Source: a virus. From it: a stretch of 11,283 nt of DNA. The position numbers and the translations under genes are program-made. Position 1 is the first letter of the stretch. Every line of letters begins with the position of its first letter. Positions 1-11,283 of the stretch are shown here, piece after piece. The stretch lies in the UHGV virus genome UHGV-1552661, one strand, 5' to 3'. The notes beneath the pieces are model-generated. The model searched no databases and was not told the origin of the DNA. It saw only the letters and a list, made by a program, of their open reading frames with translations.

Positions 1-22
1 CGGAGATGTGTATAAGAGACAG
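1..22 (+). other. Sequencing-adapter remnant: 3' end of Illumina Nextera read-2 adapter including the 19-nt Tn5 mosaic end AGATGTGTATAAGAGACAG
   Basis: Positions 1-22 read CGGAGATGTGTATAAGAGACAG, matching from memory the 3' end of the Nextera transposase adapter (...GGGCTCGG + AGATGTGTATAAGAGACAG). The ATG at position 6 that opens the six-frame ORF lies inside this adapter and is therefore artefactual. Confidence 0.85.
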
Positions 23-23
23 G

Positions 24-383
24 GAATTTGTTAAATCTAAGAAAACTTATAATATGAAACTAGGCGGTATCGGTGGCTTCCCAAAACATAACACAGCGGG
101 TGCTAAAAATGGATTTTACGGTAAATCTCATTCGCGTGAAACTAGATTGAAAATTAGCATTAAATCGTCTAGAAAAAGAGGGCCTAGAGGGCCTAGAGGT
201 AAAACTCTGAAGATGTGTGGCGCCAATAACCCAAGGTATGGCAAAATAGCCCCTAATGCTAAATCTGTTATTATCAACGGCGTTTTATATAAAAGTATTA
301 AAATCGCAGCTAAAGCTCTTAATATAAATTATAGTACCTTAAAGGGGCGAGTTAAAGCGGGGTATTATAAATGTCAGGATTAA
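24..383 (+). CDS. 5'-truncated homing endonuclease (I-TevI/Seg-like GIY-YIG family), C-terminal DNA-binding region only; catalytic domain lies upstream of the contig start
   Basis: Open frame continues from the first native codon (24) with no upstream stop; first native Met is at 54. Translation contains a NUMOD3-like motif [17 protein letters not shown] and a second partial one GANNPRYGK. The C-terminus [30 protein letters not shown] resembles the C-terminal helix-turn-helix of I-TevI (pattern I.DGV.F....AA.....S...V.YRVK, recalled from memory). No GIY-YIG motif is present in the window. Stop TAA at 381-383. Confidence 0.6.
178..198 (+). repeat. Short GC-rich tandem repeat (9-nt unit GGCCTAGAG x2, preceded by GAG) encoding RGPRGPRG in the endonuclease linker
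   Basis: gagGGCCTAGAGGGCCTAGAGgt read directly at 178-200; a GC-rich island in an otherwise AT-rich context. Confidence 0.6.
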
Positions 384-664
384 GTTATGATAAGTGTGTT
401 ACTGCTGGCCATGAAGCGTGGCCTCCAACAGTTGTGAATGCTACGCAAAGTAAAGTATTCACTGGAGGAATTGCTGTTCTAGTAGAAGGCGATCCAATTA
501 CAGAACATACAGAAATTAAAAAGCCATATGAAACACATGGCGGAGTGACACAACCCAGAACTTCTAAGGTATATGTCACTGGAAAGAAAGCTGTTCAAAT
601 GGCTGATCCAATATCATGTGGTGATACTGTGGCTCAGGCATCATCTAAAGTATTCATTAAATAG
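371..664 (+). CDS. 5.4: Baseplate central spike tip protein, PAAR-repeat family (T4 gp5.4-like), 97 aa
   Basis: ATG at 371 preceded by a G-rich RBS (GCGGGG, about 9 nt spacer). The 97-aa length and the position immediately upstream of gene 6 match T4 gp5.4. Internal duplicated segment [12 protein letters not shown] / [12 protein letters not shown] with conserved His and Cys residues is typical of PAAR-like spike tips. Confidence 0.85.
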
Positions 665-672
665 GATTTAAA

Positions 673-2655
673 ATGGCAAATACCCCTGTAAATTATCAAT
701 TAACAAGAACAGCAAATGCTATTCCCGAGATATTCGTCGGGGGTACGTTTGCTGAAATAAAACAAAACCTCATTGAATGGCTTAATGGCCAAAATGAATT
801 TTTGGATTATGATTTTGAAGGCTCAAGATTAAACGTTCTGTGTGACCTTTTGGCTTATAATACGCTGTACATTCAGCAGTTTGGTAATGCTGCTGTATAT
901 GAAAGCTTTATGCGTACTGCTAACTTACGAAGCTCAGTTGTTCAAGCTGCACAAGATAACGGATATTTACCTACTTCAAAATCCGCTGCGCAAACCGAAA
1001 TTATGTTAACATGCACCGACGCATTGAATAGGAATTACATTACAATTCCTCGCGGAACTCGCTTTTTAGCATATGCAAAAGATACTTCTGTTAATCCATA
1101 TAACTTCGTTTCTACCGAAGACGTTATTGCTATTCGTGATAAAAATAACCAATATTTTCCGCGTTTAAAATTGGCCCAGGGACGTATAGTAAGAACTGAA
1201 ATCATTTATGATAAATTAACACCTATTATCATTTATGATAAAAATATTGATAGAAACCAGGTTAAATTATATGTTGATGGAGCGGAATGGATTAACTGGA
1301 CGAGAAAGTCAATGGTTCATGCTGGTTCAACATCAACGATTTACTATATGCGTGAAACTATTGATGGAAACACTGAATTCTATTTTGGTGAAGGTGAAAT
1401 TTCTGTTAATGCTTCTGAAGGAGCTTTGACTGCTAATTATATTGGAGGTCTTAAACCTACTCAGAACTCTACGATTGTTATTGAGTACATTAGTACTAAT
1501 GGTGCTGACGCGAACGGAGCAGTCGGATTTTCATACGCAGACACATTAACAAATATAACTGTCATCAATATTAATGAAAATCCAAACGGTGACCCAGATT
1601 TTGTTGGGGCAGATGGAGGCGGTGATCCAGAAGATATTGAGCGTATTCGCGAATTGGGTACTATTAAACGCGAAACCCAGCAACGATGCGTAACTGCGAC
1701 TGACTATGATACATTCGTTTCAGAGAGATTTGGTTCTATTATTCAAGCTGTTCAAACTTTCACTGATTCTACTAAACCCGGGTATGCATTTATTGCTGCT
1801 AAACCTAAATCAGGACTGTATTTAACTACTGTACAGCGTGAAGATATTAAAAATTATCTCAAAGACTATAATTTAGCTCCTATTACGCCATCAATTATTT
1901 CTCCTAATTATCTTTTTATTAAGACTAATTTAAAAGTCACATATGCTTTAAATAAACTGCAAGAATCCGAACAGTGGCTTGAAGGTCAAATAATTGATAA
2001 AATTGATCGCTATTATACCGAAGATGTAGAAATTTTTAACTCATCTTTCGCTAAATCTAAGATGTTAACATATGTAGATGATGCAGATCATTCTGTCATT
2101 GGTTCATCAGCGACTATTCAAATGGTTCGTGAAGTACAAAACTTCTATAAAACGCCTGAAGCGGGTATTAAATACAATAATCAAATAAAAGATCGTTCTA
2201 TGGAATCTAATACGTTTTCATTTAATTCTGGACGAAAGGTTGTAAATCCTGATACTGGTTTAGAAGAAGATGTATTATATGACGTTCGTATAGTATCAAC
2301 AGACCGAGATTCTAAAGGAATTGGTAAAGTTATTATTGGTCCATTTGCTTCTGGCGATGTTACAGAAAATGAAAACATTCAGCCGTATACAGGCAACGAT
2401 TTTAACAAATTAGCAAATTCTGATGGACGCGACAAATACTATGTTATCGGTGAAATAAATTATCCGGCTGACATGATTTATTGGAATATCGCTAAAATTA
2501 ATTTAACATCTGAAAAATTTGAGGTTCAGACTATTGAATTATATTCTGACCCAACCGATGATGTTATCTTTACCCGTGACGGTTCACTGATTGTATTTGA
2601 AAATGATTTACGTCCACAATACTTAACTATCGATTTGGAGCCTATATCACAATGA
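673..2655 (+). CDS. 6: Baseplate wedge subunit gp6, 660 aa
   Basis: Long ORF starting 8 nt after the 5.4 stop, with RBS AGGA upstream. Length 660 aa equals T4 gp6; synteny 5.4-6-7-8. Stop overlaps the gene 7 start (ATGA at 2652-2655). Confidence 0.9.
   Translation: MANTPVNYQLTRTANAIPEIFVGGTFAEIKQNLIEWLNGQNEFLDYDFEGSRLNVLCDLLAYNTLYIQQFGNAAVYESFMRTANLRSSVVQAAQDNGYLPTSKSAAQTEIMLTCTDALNRNYITIPRGTRFLAYAKDTSVNPYNFVSTEDVIAIRDKNNQYFPRLKLAQGRIVRTEIIYDKLTPIIIYDKNIDRNQVKLYVDGAEWINWTRKSMVHAGSTSTIYYMRETIDGNTEFYFGEGEISVNASEGALTANYIGGLKPTQNSTIVIEYISTNGADANGAVGFSYADTLTNITVININENPNGDPDFVGADGGGDPEDIERIRELGTIKRETQQRCVTATDYDTFVSERFGSIIQAVQTFTDSTKPGYAFIAAKPKSGLYLTTVQREDIKNYLKDYNLAPITPSIISPNYLFIKTNLKVTYALNKLQESEQWLEGQIIDKIDRYYTEDVEIFNSSFAKSKMLTYVDDADHSVIGSSATIQMVREVQNFYKTPEAGIKYNNQIKDRSMESNTFSFNSGRKVVNPDTGLEEDVLYDVRIVSTDRDSKGIGKVIIGPFASGDVTENENIQPYTGNDFNKLANSDGRDKYYVIGEINYPADMIYWNIAKINLTSEKFEVQTIELYSDPTDDVIFTRDGSLIVFENDLRPQYLTIDLEPISQ
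1201..1242 (+). repeat. 15-nt exact direct repeat ATCATTTATGATAAA (1201-1215 and 1228-1242) inside gene 6, 27-nt offset, encoding IIYDK...IIYDK
   Basis: Read directly from the sequence; in-frame 9-codon periodicity suggests a local duplication or a repeated structural motif. Confidence 0.5.
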
Positions 2656-5600
2656 CAGTAAAAGCACCTTCAGTCACTAGTCTCAGAATTTCCAAGTTAT
2701 CCGCAAATCAGGTGCAAGTACGCTGGGATGACGTTGGTGCTAATTTCTACTATTTTGTAGAAATCGCTGAGACAAAAACGGACTCGGGGGAAAATCTCCC
2801 GAGCGATCAATATCGTTGGATTAATTTAGGATATACTGCAAATAACAGCTTCTTTTTTGATGATGCTGATCCATTAACAACATACATTATTAGAGTAGCC
2901 ACAGCTGCGCAAGATTTTGAGCAGTCTGATTGGATTTATACCGAAGAGTTTGAAACTTTTGCTACGAATGCTTACACATTTCAAAACATGATTGAAATGC
3001 AATTAGCCAATAAATTCATTCAGGAAAAATTTACTCTTAACAATTCTAATTATGTCAATTTTAATAATGACACTATAATGGCTGCATTGATGAATGAATC
3101 GTTTCAATTCAGCCCATCATATGCTGATGTCTCATCAATTAGTAATTTTATTATTGGTGAAAATGAATACCATGAAATACAGGGTTCTATTCAACAAGTA
3201 TGTAAGGATATTAATCGAGTTTATTTGATGGAATCAGAAGGGATTCTATATCTTTTTGAGCGTTATCAACCCGTGGTTAAAGTATCTAATGATAAAGGAC
3301 AAACCTGGAAAGCTGTAAAGCTCTTCAATGACCGTGTAGGATATCCTTTATCTAAGACAGTATATTACCAATCTGCGAACACAACATACGTTCTAGGATA
3401 CGACAAGATTTTCTACGGCCGTAAATCTACTGATGTTAGATGGTCAGCTGATGATGTCAGATTTAGTTCGCAAGATATAACATTCGCTAAACTTGGCGAC
3501 CAATTACATCTAGGATTTGATGTAGAAATTTTTGCGACTTACGCGACTTTACCTGCGAATGTATACCGCATTGCAGAAGCTATTACTTGCACCGATGATT
3601 ACATTTACGTTGTCGCCAGAGACAAAGTTAGATACATAAAAACAAGTAATGCACCTATAGATTCTGATCCATTATCTCCAACATATTCGGAAAGGCTTTT
3701 TGAACCTGATACCATGACTATAACCGGAAATCCTAAAGCAGTATGCTATAAAATGGATTCTATCGGTGATAAAGTTTTTGCTCTTATTATTGGTGAAGTT
3801 GAAACATTAAATGCTAATCCTAGAACATCAAAAATAATTGATTCTGCTGATAAGGGAATATATGTTTTAAATCATGACACAAAAACATGGAAAAGAGTTT
3901 TTGGCAACACTGAAGAAGAAAGAAGACGTATTCAACCGGGGTACGCGAATATGTCAACTGATGGTAAATTAGTTTCTCTATCTTCGAGTAATTTTAAATT
4001 TTTAAGTGATAACGTTGTTAATGATCCTGAAACTGCAGTAAAATACCAGTTAATCGGTGCCGTTAAATATGAATTTCCTCGTGAATGGTTAGCTGATAAG
4101 CATTATCATATGATGGCATTTATAGCAGATGAAAAGTCTGATTGGGAAACTTTTACGCCTCAGCCAATGAAATACTATGCAGAACCATTCTTTAACTGGT
4201 CTAAAAAATCTAACACACGGTGTTGGATAAACAACTCTGATAGAGCTGTAGTAGTTTATGCTGATTTAAAATACACTAAAGTTATTGAAAATTTTCCAGA
4301 AACATCTCCAGATAGATTAGTTCATGAATACTGGGATGACGGCGATTGCACTATAGTAATGCCAAATGTTAAATTCACTGGATTTAAAAAATATGCATCT
4401 GGGATGCTTTTCTATAAAGCCTCCGGTGAAATAATTTCTTACTATGATTTTAACTATCGTGTGAGAGATACAGTAGAAATTATTTGGAAGCCAACTGGAA
4501 TATTTTTAAAAGCATTTTTACAAAACCAAGAGCATGAAACTCCTTGGTCGCCTGAAGAAGAGCATGGATTAGCTGACCCTGATTTAAGACCATTGATTGG
4601 CACAATGATGCCTGATTCTTATTTACTACAAGATTCGAATTTTGAGGCATTTTGCGAAGCATATATTCAGTATCTTTCTGATGGATATGGAACTCAGTAT
4701 AACAATTTACGAAATTTAATTCGTAATCAGTATCCACGAGAAGAGCATGCATGGGAATATTTGTGGTCAGAGATATATAAAAGAAACATTTATTTGAACG
4801 CGGATAAGCGAGATGCTGTTGCAAGATTTTTTGAATCACGTAGCTATGATTTTTATTCTACTAAAGGAATTGAAGCATCATACAAGTTTCTTTTTAAAGT
4901 TCTTTATAATGAAGAAGTTGAAATTGAAATTGAATCTGGGGCTGGTACTGAATATGACATAATCGTTCAATCTGATTCTTTGACTGAAGATTTAGTAGGA
5001 CAAACGATTTATACAGCCACAGGAAGATGTAATGTTACTTATATAGAAAGAAGTTATTCTAATGGTAAATTGCAATGGACCGTAACTATTCATAATCTTT
5101 TGGGAAGATTAATTGCTGGTCAAGAAGTTAAAGCAGAAAGACTCCCTAGTTTTGAAGGCGAAATTATTCGTGGAGTTAAAGGAAAGGATTTGCTTCAAAA
5201 CAATATAGACTATATTAATAGAAGTAGATCATACTATGTAATGAAAATTAAATCCAATTTACCTTCTTCCCGCTGGAAATCTGACGTTATTCGTTTTGTT
5301 CATCCAGTAGGATTTGGATTTATAGCAATTACCCTTTTAACGATGTTTATTAATGTTGGTTTAACTCTTAAACATACAGAGACTATAATTAATAAATACA
5401 AAAACTATAAATGGGATTCTGGATTGCCTACTGAATATGCTGATAGAGTAGCTAAATTAACTCCAACCGGTGAAATTGAGTATGATTCAGTAACAGGCGA
5501 AGCAATTTATGAGCCTGGCCCAATGGCTGGTGTAGAATATCCTCTTCCTGATGACTATAATGCTGAAAATAATAATTCAATATTTCAAGGTCAATTGCCG

Positions 5601-5750: not shown

Positions 5751-6747
5751 TTCAAGTGTTATCTATCGTGCGATAGTTACTTCAAAATTTAGAACAGAAA
5801 AAATGTTGAATTTTTATAATTCAATTGGGAGTGGTCCGGATAAAAACACTATCTTTATCACATTTGGAAGATCAGAACCGTGGTCATCAAATGAAAATGA
5901 GGTGGGCTTTGCCCCACCTTATCCAACCGATTCTGTATTAGGCGTAACTGACATATGGACGCATATGATGGGAACAGTAAAGGTTCTTCCATCAATGCTT
6001 GATGCAGTTATTCCTCGTCGAGATTGGGGAGATACTAGATATCCGGATCCGTATACATTTAGAATTAACGATATTGTAGTGTGTAACTCAGCTCCTTACA
6101 ACGCTACTGAATCAGGCGCAGGCTGGTTAGTATATCGTTGTTTAGATGTTCCTGATACTGGAATGTGTTCAATCGCATCTTTAACTGATAAGGATGAATG
6201 CCTTAAATTAGGCGGAAAATGGACACCTTCTGTTAGGTCAATGACTCCTCCTGAAGGTCGAGGAGATGCTGAAGGAACAATTGAACCTGGGGACGGGTAT
6301 GTATGGGAATATCTTTTTGAGATTCCGCCTGATGTATCTATAAATAGATGCACGAATGAATATATCGTGGTTCCTTGGCCTGAGGAATTAAAAGAAGACC
6401 CGACTAGATGGGGATATGAAGATAATCTCACTTGGCAACAAGATGATTTTGGATTAATTTACCGGGTTAAGGCAAATACTATCCGTTTTAAAGCATATTT
6501 AGATTCAGTTTATTTTCCTGATGCTGCATTGCCAGGAAATAAAGGATTTAGACAAATATCAATAATCACGAATCCTCTTGAAGCTAAAGCTCATCCAAAT
6601 GACCCAAACGTTAAAGCTGAAAAGGATTATTATGACCCAGAAGATTTAATGAGGCATTCGGGCGAAATGATTTATATGGAAAATAGGCCACCTATTATTA
6701 TGGCAATGGATCAAACAGAAGAAATCAATATTCTGTTTACATTTTAA
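5743..6747 (+). CDS. 8: Baseplate wedge subunit gp8, 334 aa
   Basis: ORF of 334 aa (T4 gp8 length) beginning MNDSSVIYRAIV. ATG at 5743 overlaps the gene 7 stop by 8 nt. Followed by the only intergenic gap, which contains a terminator. Confidence 0.9.
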   Translation: MNDSSVIYRAIVTSKFRTEKMLNFYNSIGSGPDKNTIFITFGRSEPWSSNENEVGFAPPYPTDSVLGVTDIWTHMMGTVKVLPSMLDAVIPRRDWGDTRYPDPYTFRINDIVVCNSAPYNATESGAGWLVYRCLDVPDTGMCSIASLTDKDECLKLGGKWTPSVRSMTPPEGRGDAEGTIEPGDGYVWEYLFEIPPDVSINRCTNEYIVVPWPEELKEDPTRWGYEDNLTWQQDDFGLIYRVKANTIRFKAYLDSVYFPDAALPGNKGFRQISIITNPLEAKAHPNDPNVKAEKDYYDPEDLMRHSGEMIYMENRPPIIMAMDQTEEINILFTF

Positions 6748-6752
6748 ATTAA

Positions 6753-6780
6753 GGGAGCCCATGGGCTCCCTTTTTTCTTT
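6753..6780 (+). terminator. Rho-independent terminator after gene 8: perfect 18-nt palindrome GGGAGCCCATGGGCTCCC (7-bp GC-rich stem, CATG loop) followed by TTTTTTCTTT
   Basis: Palindrome at 6753-6770 is its own reverse complement; a T-run at 6771-6780 follows immediately; it sits 6 nt after the gene 8 stop codon. Confidence 0.75.
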
Positions 6781-6787
6781 ATAAATA
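6780..6787 (+). promoter_or_regulatory. T4-type late promoter core TATAAATA upstream of gene 9
   Basis: Exact TATAAATA at 6780-6787, 25 nt upstream of the gene 9 ATG and followed by RBS AAGGA (about 6800-6804). T4 late promoters (gp55-dependent) consist essentially of this 8-mer at about -10. Confidence 0.6.
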
Positions 6788-7678: not shown

Positions 7679-9483
7679 TGAAACAAAATATTAATATCGG
7701 TAATGTTGTAGATGATGGTACCGGTGACTACCTGCGTAAAGGTGGTATAAAAATAAATGAAAACTTTGATGAGCTTTATTACGAGCTTGGTGATGGAGAT
7801 GTTCCATATTCAGCCGGTGCCTGGAAAACTTATAATGCTTCATCAGGACAAACATTAACGGCAGAATGGGGAAAATCATATGCTATTAACACTTCATCTG
7901 GAAGAGTAACTCTACAACTTCCTAAAGGAACCGTTAATGATTATAATAAAGTAATTAAAGCTAGGGATGTATTTGCAACATGGAATGTTAATCCAGTTAC
8001 TCTAGTAGCCGCTTCTGGTGATACTATTAAAGGATCATCGTCATCAGTTGAAATTAATGTTCAATTTAGCGATTTAGAGTTAGTTTATTGTGCTCCAGGA
8101 CGTTGGGAATATGTCAAAAACAAACAAATTGACAAAATTATTAGTTCAGATATTAGTAATGTAGCACGTAAAGAATTTTTAGTCGAAGTTCAAGGACAAA
8201 CAGACTTTTTAGATGTTTTCCGCGGAACTAGCTATAATGTTAATAACATCCGAGTAAAACACCGTGGTAATGAATTATATTACGGCGATGTATTTAGTGA
8301 AAACAGTGACTTTGGCTCTCCTGGGGAAAATGAAGGAGAATTGATTCCTCTTGATGGATTTAATATTAGGTTAAGACAGCCTTGTAATATTGGTGACACT
8401 GTTCAAATTGAAACATTTATGGATGGTATATCACAATGGAGAAGTTCATATACAAGACGCCAAATAAAAGTATTAGATTCAAAATTAACGTCAAAAACTT
8501 CTTTAGAAGGAAGTATTTACGTTACTGATTTATCAACAATGAAATCAATTCCATTCTCTGCATTTGGATTAATTCCTGGAGAACCTATTAATCCTAATTC
8601 TCTTGAAGTTCGTTTTAATGGAATTTTACAACAACAAGCTGGAACAGCAGGATATCCTCTGTTTTTGTGTGAAGGTGCTAACTCAGATACGCAAGCAGGA
8701 TGTATATCTCTTGGTGGTGAATGGAAAGAATCGAACACAGATTATTCTATAGAATATGAAGATGGAAAACCTGCCAGTCTTTTATTTGATAGAAAATTTG
8801 AATCAGGTGATATAATCGTTATAACATGGTTTAATAATGATTTAGGAACTCTTTTAGAAAAAGATGACATTATTGAATTAACTGATGACCGTTATGTTAG
8901 TAAAGGATCATCTACTGAAGTTACTGGGGATGTAGCCTTAACAGATTTTGATAAAATCGGTTGGCCAAATGTTGAAAAAGTTGATTCTTATACTAGAACG
9001 TATAATTCAATATCATCTATTTTCGACAGCATTTATCCTGTTGGTTCAATTTATGAAAATGCTATAAACCCAAATAATCCGGTGACTTATATGGGATTTG
9101 GTTCATGGAAATTATTTGGTAAAGGACAAGTTTTAGTAGGATGGAATGATGATGTTACGGATCCAAACTTTGCTTTAAACAATAATGATTTAGATTCTAG
9201 CGGAAATCCTTCACATACTGCCGGTGGAACAGTTGGTACAACATCAGTAACGCTTGAAAACGCAAATCTTCCTGCGACTAAAACTGATGAAAGAGTTTTA
9301 ATTGAAGACGAAAATGGATCAGTTATTATTGGAGGATGTCAATATGACCCAGACGAAACTGGTCCTATATATACAAAATATCGTGAAGACTACGCAACAA
9401 CAAACTCTTCACATACTCCTCCTACTAATATTAGTAATATTCAACCGTCTATTACTGTATACCGTTGGATAAGGATTGCATAA
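7678..9483 (+). CDS. 10: Baseplate wedge subunit and tail pin gp10, 601 aa
   Basis: 601-aa ORF (T4 gp10 recalled as about 602 aa). N-terminal motif is shared with gp9. RBS GGGGTGG upstream. Stop TAA 9481-9483 overlaps the gene 11 ATG (9483-9485). Confidence 0.9.
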
Positions 9484-10142
9484 TGAGTTTACTTAATAAT
9501 AAAGCGGGAGTTATTTCCCGCTTAGCAGATTTTCTTGGTTTTAGAACTAAGAAAAATGATATTTCGGTTATGAATAATCAGCCGGTAGGCGCTGTAACAA
9601 TTTCACAAATAGCAAAAGGTTTTTATGACTCAAATGTAGAATCTGCTATCAATGATGTTAGAAATATGGCAGAGCAACAGGTTGGAGCTGTATTAATTAA
9701 TATAAGCGGCGTATCTCCTACTGGCGTGCAACAAACCGACTATTGGTCATTTGAAGGAACTGTTACTGATACTTCAGCCAAACCAGGTGACCCAGTTATT
9801 GTTAACATGTTTGGTATTCCAGTTAAAGCTACTAATGGAATGACTTCAATTGAATTTACTAGTGCTGTTAGAACAGCTCTACAGGAAATGGTTGTAAAAT
9901 TTATTGCAATTGATTCATTTGAAGACCATCCTACTATAGGGAATAAAATACAAGTTAAGTATTTAGATAACCAAGAACATATCTTAGAGCAATACTCTGA
10001 TAAAGGAATTACTTTCAAACAAGAAATAATTTCTCCTTCTAAACCCGGGTATGGAACTTGGCAATTATTAGGTGCGCAAACTGTTACGCTAGATAGTCAT
10101 ACACAACCTACAGTATTTTATTATTTTGAGAGAATAGCATGA
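9483..10142 (+). CDS. 11: Baseplate wedge subunit and tail pin gp11 (short tail fibre attachment), 219 aa
   Basis: Start chosen at ATG 9483 ([20 protein letters not shown]) rather than the six-frame start at 9465, because 9483 gives 219 aa (T4 gp11 length), has RBS AAGGA about 7 nt upstream, and avoids an 18-nt overlap with gene 10. Stop TGA 10140-10142 overlaps the gene 12 ATG. Confidence 0.9.
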
Positions 10143-11283
10143 GTAACAATACATATCAGCACGTATCAAATGAATCAAAATATGTTAAATTCGATCCCAC
10201 TGGATCGAATTTTCCTGGCACTGTTACGACAGTACAGTCTGCATTATCAAAAATAAGTAATATCGGCGTAAATGGTATTCCTGATGCAACTATGGAAGTT
10301 AAAGGAATAGCAATGATTGCATCAGAGCAAGAGGTTTTAGATGGAACAAATAATTCTAAAATCGTTACACCAGCTACATTAGCAACAAGATTATTGTATC
10401 CAAATGCTACTGAAACTAAATATGGTTTAACGCGCTATTCAACAAATGAAGAAACATTAGAAGGCTCAGATAATAATTCATCAATAACGCCGCAAAAACT
10501 GAAATACCATACTGATGATGTGTTCCGAAATAGATATTCATCTGAGTCATCAAACGGGGTTATTAAAATATCATCTACGCCTGCAGCTTTGGCTGGTGTC
10601 GATGATACTACGGCGATGACTCCGTTGAAAACCCAAAAACTTGCAATAAAATTAATTTCACAAATAGCTCCTTCCGAAGATACTGCATCAGAATCTGTGA
10701 GAGGTGTAGTTCAATTATCTACTGTTGCGCAAACTCGTCAAGGAACTCTCCGCGAAGGATATGCAATTTCCCCATATACCTTTATGAATTCTGTTGCAAC
10801 ACAAGAATATAAGGGTGTTATACGTCTAGGAACACAAGCAGAAATTAATAATAATTTGGGGGATGTTGCAGTAACAGGTGAAACACTAAATGGTCGAGGA
10901 GCTACCGGTTCTATGCGTGGGGTAGTAAAATTAACGACGCAAGCTGGTATTGCTCCTGAAGGTGATAGCTCTGGGGCATTAGCCTGGAACGCAGATGTAA
11001 TTAATACTCGTGGTGGACAAACTATTAATGGTTCTTTAAATTTAGATCATCTTACAGCAAACGGAATTTGGTCGCGCGGCGGAATGTGGAAAAATGGCGA
11101 TCAACCTGTTGCCACTGAAAGATATGCGTCCGAAAGAATTCCAGTTGGGACTATTATGATGTTTGCAGGTGATTCAGCACCTCCTGGTTGGCTTATGTGC
11201 CATGGTGGAACCGTGTCAGGTGACCAATTTCCTGATTATAGAAACGTAGTTGGAGGAAGATTTGGTGGGGATTGGAATAATCC
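10139..11283 (+). CDS. 12: Short tail fibre protein gp12, 3'-truncated at the window end (N-terminal ~381 codons)
   Basis: ATG at 10139 (ATGA overlap with the gene 11 stop); frame stays open to the window end. Translation starts [20 protein letters not shown] and carries about six tandem fibre repeats (G-[VI]-x-[KRQ]-[LI]-[ST]-T type, e.g. [54 protein letters not shown]). Not in the supplied ORF track because it has no stop within the window. Confidence 0.9.

Follow-up and report, generated by a model that had tools for sequence, protein, structure and literature searches.

The closest described system to the locus studied here is segC of bacteriophage T4. In a review table segC is listed as a free-standing gene of the GIY-YIG type, inserted at 5.1/5.3, for which homing has been demonstrated (Edgell et al. 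2010; PMC2988022), and the review cites Shcherbakov et al. (Genetics 2002, 162:543) for SegC homing. In the same review segC appears as a promoter-less cassette that overlaps the upstream ORF by 20 bp, and the other Seg endonucleases as distinct genes that occupy other T4 loci and have other targets (PMC2988022). The domain families PF19835 and PF07460 are common to SegC, to SegA, SegB and SegD to SegG, and to the wider SegE_GIY-YIG/NUMOD3 family.

I-TevI, which is encoded by the T4 td intron (PDB entries 1i3j, 1ln0 and 1mk0), resembles SegC in its layout, with the GIY-YIG domain at the N-terminus and a linker leading to a C-terminal helix-turn-helix (HTH) DNA-binding module. The two proteins are only ~20–22% identical, however, and SegC is free-standing whereas I-TevI is intron-encoded. 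They differ also in the linker, where I-TevI has a Cys4 zinc finger and SegC carries a NUMOD3 motif in its place. The ORF described below has two cysteines, and therefore no Cys4 zinc finger of the kind found in I-TevI.

Identity and domains of the gene at the contig edge

The window, by which we mean the whole stretch of 11,283 nt that was analysed, opens with part of such a gene. We identify bases 23–383 as the 3' 60% of T4 segC, the free-standing GIY-YIG homing-endonuclease gene, cut by the contig end, and put the probability of this reading at about 95%. The features of this part of the window are listed here with their coordinates and strand.

1–22, no strand assigned: tail of the Illumina Nextera Read-2 transposase adapter, consisting of CGG and the 19-nt mosaic end; non-phage
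23–383, plus strand: 3' part of segC, encoding SegC residues 80–198, in frame from base 24, with the TAA stop at 381–383
99–158, plus strand: NUMOD3 DNA-binding motif (Pfam PF07460, ORF residues 26–45)
180–197, plus strand: tandem 9-bp repeat, GGGCCTAGA x2, in a low-confidence linker; with the next GGT it encodes RGPRGPRG
240–359, plus strand: I-TevI-like C-terminal DNA-binding module with helix-turn-helix (Pfam PF20987, ORF residues 73–112)
367–383, plus strand: right edge of the segC insertion, from which point (ATAAATG onward) the sequence is common to segC-less phages
371–664, plus strand: gene 5.4, encoding the PAAR spike-tip protein (Pfam PAAR_motif, 38.8 bits), the conserved right-hand neighbour

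The translation of bases 24–383 is free of stops for 119 aa before the terminal TAA. It is identical at 119/119 aa to the SegC cluster representative in a collection of 5.8 billion proteins (P0001), and the DNA is identical at 344/344 nt (bases 23–366) to segC of phage T4T and of Shigella phage SHFML-26. In T4T (HM137666) the gene has 198 codons and lies between 5.1 and 5.4 (protein ADJ39869). Whether this ORF corresponds to T4 segC or to a different insertion had been left undecided in the original prediction, which was made from the sequence alone; the protein and DNA identities settle the question in favour of segC. The window ORF also matches PHROG 314, annotated as “homing endonuclease” (E 7.7e-18). 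A megablast of window 23–700 against 50,697 phage records matched 516 of them, and the full-length matches, which cover the order segC (or homing endonuclease), 5.4 and 6, are all from T4-like phages (Tequatrovirus). The name segC is given to the gene in T4, T4T, RB55 and RB59, and relatives otherwise carry it as “homing endonuclease”. Over the whole 11.3-kb window the best match is SHFML-26 (97.8%); the carrier phage is not T4 itself.

T4 SegC, which appears in NC_000866 as segC (T4p148) plus “5.3” (T4p149), is the same gene with the same 13-nt overlap with gene 5.4, but the window holds only residues 80–198. The split annotation is explained by a 1-bp gap in the T4 reference record (NC_000866.4 / AF158101) at the position of window 192, inside the 9-bp repeat, which divides the gene there into a 140-aa “segC” followed by “5.3”. 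In contrast to this record, the window has a continuous frame through the repeat, as do T4T and most records. Two engineered or mutant T4 records have a segC span of 345 instead of 348 bases. In the AlphaFold model of full-length SegC this flexible Arg/Gly/Pro linker, which separates the two DNA-binding modules, has a pLDDT below 50 at residues 134–142.

The ORF had been predicted to carry the DNA-binding modules of a GIY-YIG homing endonuclease, and both modules are supported. NUMOD3 scores 30.0 bits against a Pfam cut-off of 20.4 (E 4.9e-07); the motif quoted in the prediction is present at ORF residues 33–45, and the structure model has a helix in the NUMOD3 region, at SegC residues 117–130. 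The C-terminal module is matched by I-TevI_DNA-bd (PF20987) with 25.1 bits (E 1.6e-05), which is 1.9 under the cut-off of 27, and this module was therefore examined further. The family is very large: an exhaustive HMMER search with full-length SegC over protein cluster representatives matched 19,726 of them at E<=0.001, mostly via the N-terminal domain, and only a handful of relatives align along the whole SegC length, C-terminal module included. While phmmer of full-length SegC against PDB sequences gave no match, I-TevI could be reached with a profile built from 18 relatives aligned across the whole SegC length. This profile matched only three PDB sequences, namely 1i3j, the DNA-binding domain of I-TevI (E 0.013, over the C-terminal 64 positions), and 1ln0/1mk0, its catalytic domain (E 0.059).

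The AlphaFold model has a mean pLDDT of 81, and its C-terminal block (residues 160–197; pLDDT ~90) consists of two short strands and helices at 171–178 and 182–190. The top four Foldseek matches of the model in the PDB are to the I-TevI catalytic domain (probability 1.00, TM 0.60–0.62) and to the I-TevI DNA-binding domain (1i3j_A, 0.99), and those beyond the top four are noise. The E-values of the PDB profile and Foldseek matches are just ~0.01–0.06. The sub-threshold Pfam score, the profile matches and the fold matches are thus each modest but agree with one another, and we consider an I-TevI-type C-terminal HTH to be present.

Pfam finds no catalytic domain within the window, as had been predicted. 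In full-length T4T SegC, SegE_GIY-YIG (PF19835) occupies residues 9–82 (26.4 bits against a cut-off of 25), and the window starts at residue 80. Judged from intact relatives, the GIY-YIG catalytic domain of this copy would therefore lie almost wholly upstream of the contig edge, within the ~79 missing codons.

Insertion site, distribution and mobility

The placement of the ORF immediately upstream of gene 5.4 is confirmed by the PAAR match at 371–664, and the gene is so annotated in T4 and T4T. In many phage records gene 5.4 is called a “phospholipase”, which looks like a propagated mis-annotation. To the right of the segC site lie gene 5.4 and then gene 6 (673–2655), while the expected left neighbour, 5.1, falls outside the contig. 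Gene 5.4 starts inside segC, and the final codons and stop codon of segC come from DNA that is also present at the empty site. The matches of segC-less records accordingly start at query position 345, which is window 367 (some at 348). At the empty site gene 5.1 abuts 5.4 in RB32, T2 and GADU22, with the RB32/T2 junction reading ...CCATAAATGTCAGG, and ATAAAT bounds the segC insertion on both sides. Across the remainder of the window (genes 5.4, 6, 7, 8, 9, 10, 11 and part of 12), synteny with SHFML-26 is preserved.

A query restricted to segC (window 23–370), in a search sensitive to roughly 65–70% identity, found the segC part in 39 records, 37 of them full length and nearly all at least 99.7% identical. 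Set against the 516 records that match the 5.4/6 region, these 37 amount to ~7%, and among T4-like genomes segC is thus present in a minority, with 5.1 abutting 5.4 elsewhere. The original prediction had singled out the interval between gene 5 and gene 5.4 for comparison, and its claim of a variably present accessory locus in an otherwise core window, here one of baseplate genes, holds up: the gene occurs sporadically, at a single site between conserved genes, and relatives have a clean empty site.

The segC part has 0 mismatches in 344 nt, compared with 96–99% identity for the flanking structural genes of the same genomes. At a background divergence of ~2.5% we estimate that ~8–9 differences would be expected in segC. 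On sequence comparison, such perfect identity in diverged flanks fits recent homing. Outside the window, immediately to the left of the insertion, 8 substitutions between segC-carrying T4T and segC-less T2 and RB32 cluster in the last 35 nt of gene 5.1, which is otherwise nearly identical. This divergence beside the insertion presumably keeps the carrier's own DNA uncut.

Several observations concern the neighbourhood and the relatives of this copy. For gene 5.4 the nearest genome is SHFML-26, but window 665–1500 (the 5' part of gene 6) is 99.5% identical to the segC-less GADU22 and 96.9% to the segC-carrying SHFML-26. The DNA adjoining the segC site on the right is thus locally mosaic, a pattern that would be consistent with tracts of co-conversion or recombination. 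Further along, window 7679–11283 (genes 10, 11 and 12) has ~82%, 70% and 66% identity to T4T, against 97–99.7% to SHFML-26, in a simple global alignment in which indel effects are possible; on this alignment, open as it is to such effects, the tail-pin and short-tail-fibre genes appear to be of a non-T4 type.

The 5.1/5.4 site of a T4-like metagenomic contig (L014, positions 3001–3582; Logan ERR2029884) holds a diverged allele of segC (P0002), which encodes 193 aa and is 92% identical across the part present in the window. The segC element thus exists at this site in a non-identical form too. A second candidate, an apparent SegC relative with “74% identical” sequence (P0003), does not qualify as a natural homologue. 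The contigs that encode it are T4 DNA with T in place of every sense-strand C (260/260, 165/165 and 151/151 positions at loci L011–L013; Logan SRR24798469, SRR24798471 and SRR24798472), and look like T4 control DNA, converted by bisulfite or an enzyme, that went through assembly and gene calling.

The contig end and alternative readings

Bases 1–22 (CGGAGATGTGTATAAGAGACAG) are, by string match, the last 22 nt of GTCTCGTGGGCTCGGAGATGTGTATAAGAGACAG, which we take to be the Illumina Nextera Read-2 transposase adapter. These bases have no alignment to T4, T4T or SHFML-26, and alignment is perfect from base 23 on, so that base 23 is the first native phage base. With phage sequence directly against adapter, the contig end is an artefact of the library, and it is because the contig stops in this untrimmed adapter that the first ~79 codons, with the catalytic domain, are missing. 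The program-listed ORF 6–383 starts at an in-frame ATG (6–8) inside the adapter, and is therefore an adapter/phage chimera. From this ATG an automatic gene caller would give a false 125-aa protein beginning MCIRDR.

The ORF had been described as a “remnant” truncated by the contig edge. The truncation stands, but “remnant” is misleading, because the frame is open to the edge and does not differ from intact genes. If it were a true genomic remnant, segC would have lost its catalytic 5' part and would persist as a DNA-binding-only pseudogene, or as a short protein made from an internal ATG. Such a product could start at the in-frame ATG at 54–56, the window does lack a catalytic domain, and a shortened 135-aa segC is annotated in one engineered T4 mutant record (MZ375356). 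Yet the phage sequence ends directly at the adapter, which marks a library artefact and no genomic boundary, and the frame stays open right up to that point. A decaying gene would also be expected to carry changes, whereas this one has 0 differences over 344 nt from intact genes, and the gene tables of the natural carriers SHFML-26, T4T, SP21535 and contig L014 give a gene of 193–198 codons. We regard a genomic remnant as very improbable. The chance is slimmer still that the unseen 5' part differs from that of T4, either through a swapped or lost catalytic domain or through a DNA-binding-only product that is made from the ATG at 54 and functions in repression or site protection; if this were true, the C-terminal half would have been reused for something other than homing. 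We can find no place at all for the reading that the ORF ends some unrelated conserved protein and merely resembles endonuclease DNA-binding modules. Apart from the HTH match, which taken alone is under the Pfam threshold, nothing was found in its favour, and annotated segC genes with a GIY-YIG N-terminus in complete genomes match the DNA at 100% identity.

For the break itself, the original prediction had offered either assembly failure at a polymorphic endonuclease locus or an arbitrary break. The former would arise if the sample mixed segC-carrying and segC-less phages, so that the assembler stopped at the polymorphic locus. The gene is indeed polymorphic among close relatives (~7% of matching records), and mosaicism exists, with the 5' part of gene 6 nearer to a segC-less phage. 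In a mixture, however, a fork would be expected at the insertion junctions (366/367, and ~230 nt left of base 23), and the break instead lies mid-segC, ~230 nt from the left junction and 344 nt from the right one. The adapter at 1–22 moreover explains the dead end by itself. Assembly failure at the locus is thus unlikely, if somewhat less so than a genomic remnant, and the arbitrary break is favoured, given the 22 nt of adapter at the contig start and a break position away from the junctions. A read with adapter at the tip of the contig is enough, on technical grounds, to account for the dead end, although low coverage or other causes are possible. We accordingly return to the reading of the gene as ordinary segC cut by the contig end, whose unseen 5' part in this phage is presumably intact.

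Proposed homing and the significance of this copy

Expression signals in and around the gene were sought in two ways. A scan of window 1–800 for sigma-70 promoters and terminators gave sites no more numerous than in shuffled sequence, and the T4 late-promoter consensus TATAAATA is absent in and next to segC. This lack of promoter signal fits the promoter-less cassette of the review (PMC2988022). Elsewhere in the window, an exact TATAAATA is found at 6780–6787, in the 64 bp that separate genes 8 and 9, and a second one inside gene 8 (6339–6346); two in the window is no more than chance.

A homing mechanism for this copy may be proposed on the basis of its family and of what is published for T4 SegC. 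During mixed infection, SegC would use its C-terminal half (NUMOD3 and HTH) to bind a genome that lacks segC at the empty 5.1/5.4 junction, where its tethered GIY-YIG domain would introduce a double-strand break. With the segC-carrying genome as template, recombinational repair would then transfer segC, together with flanking markers close by, to the recipient. A literature search on the SegC cleavage site (ets1) gave unrelated papers only. The enzyme is probably active in this phage.

This copy of segC is already known and ordinary, and there is nothing new in it. Its value for annotation is that the adapter should be trimmed and the gene labelled “segC, 5'-partial”, neither “pseudogene” nor “remnant”. 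The biological weight is small, as segC is a catalogued and experimentally studied mobile gene of T4 to which this copy is identical. The locus is nevertheless a clean textbook example of the homing signature, in which a perfectly conserved insert sits between diverged flanks.
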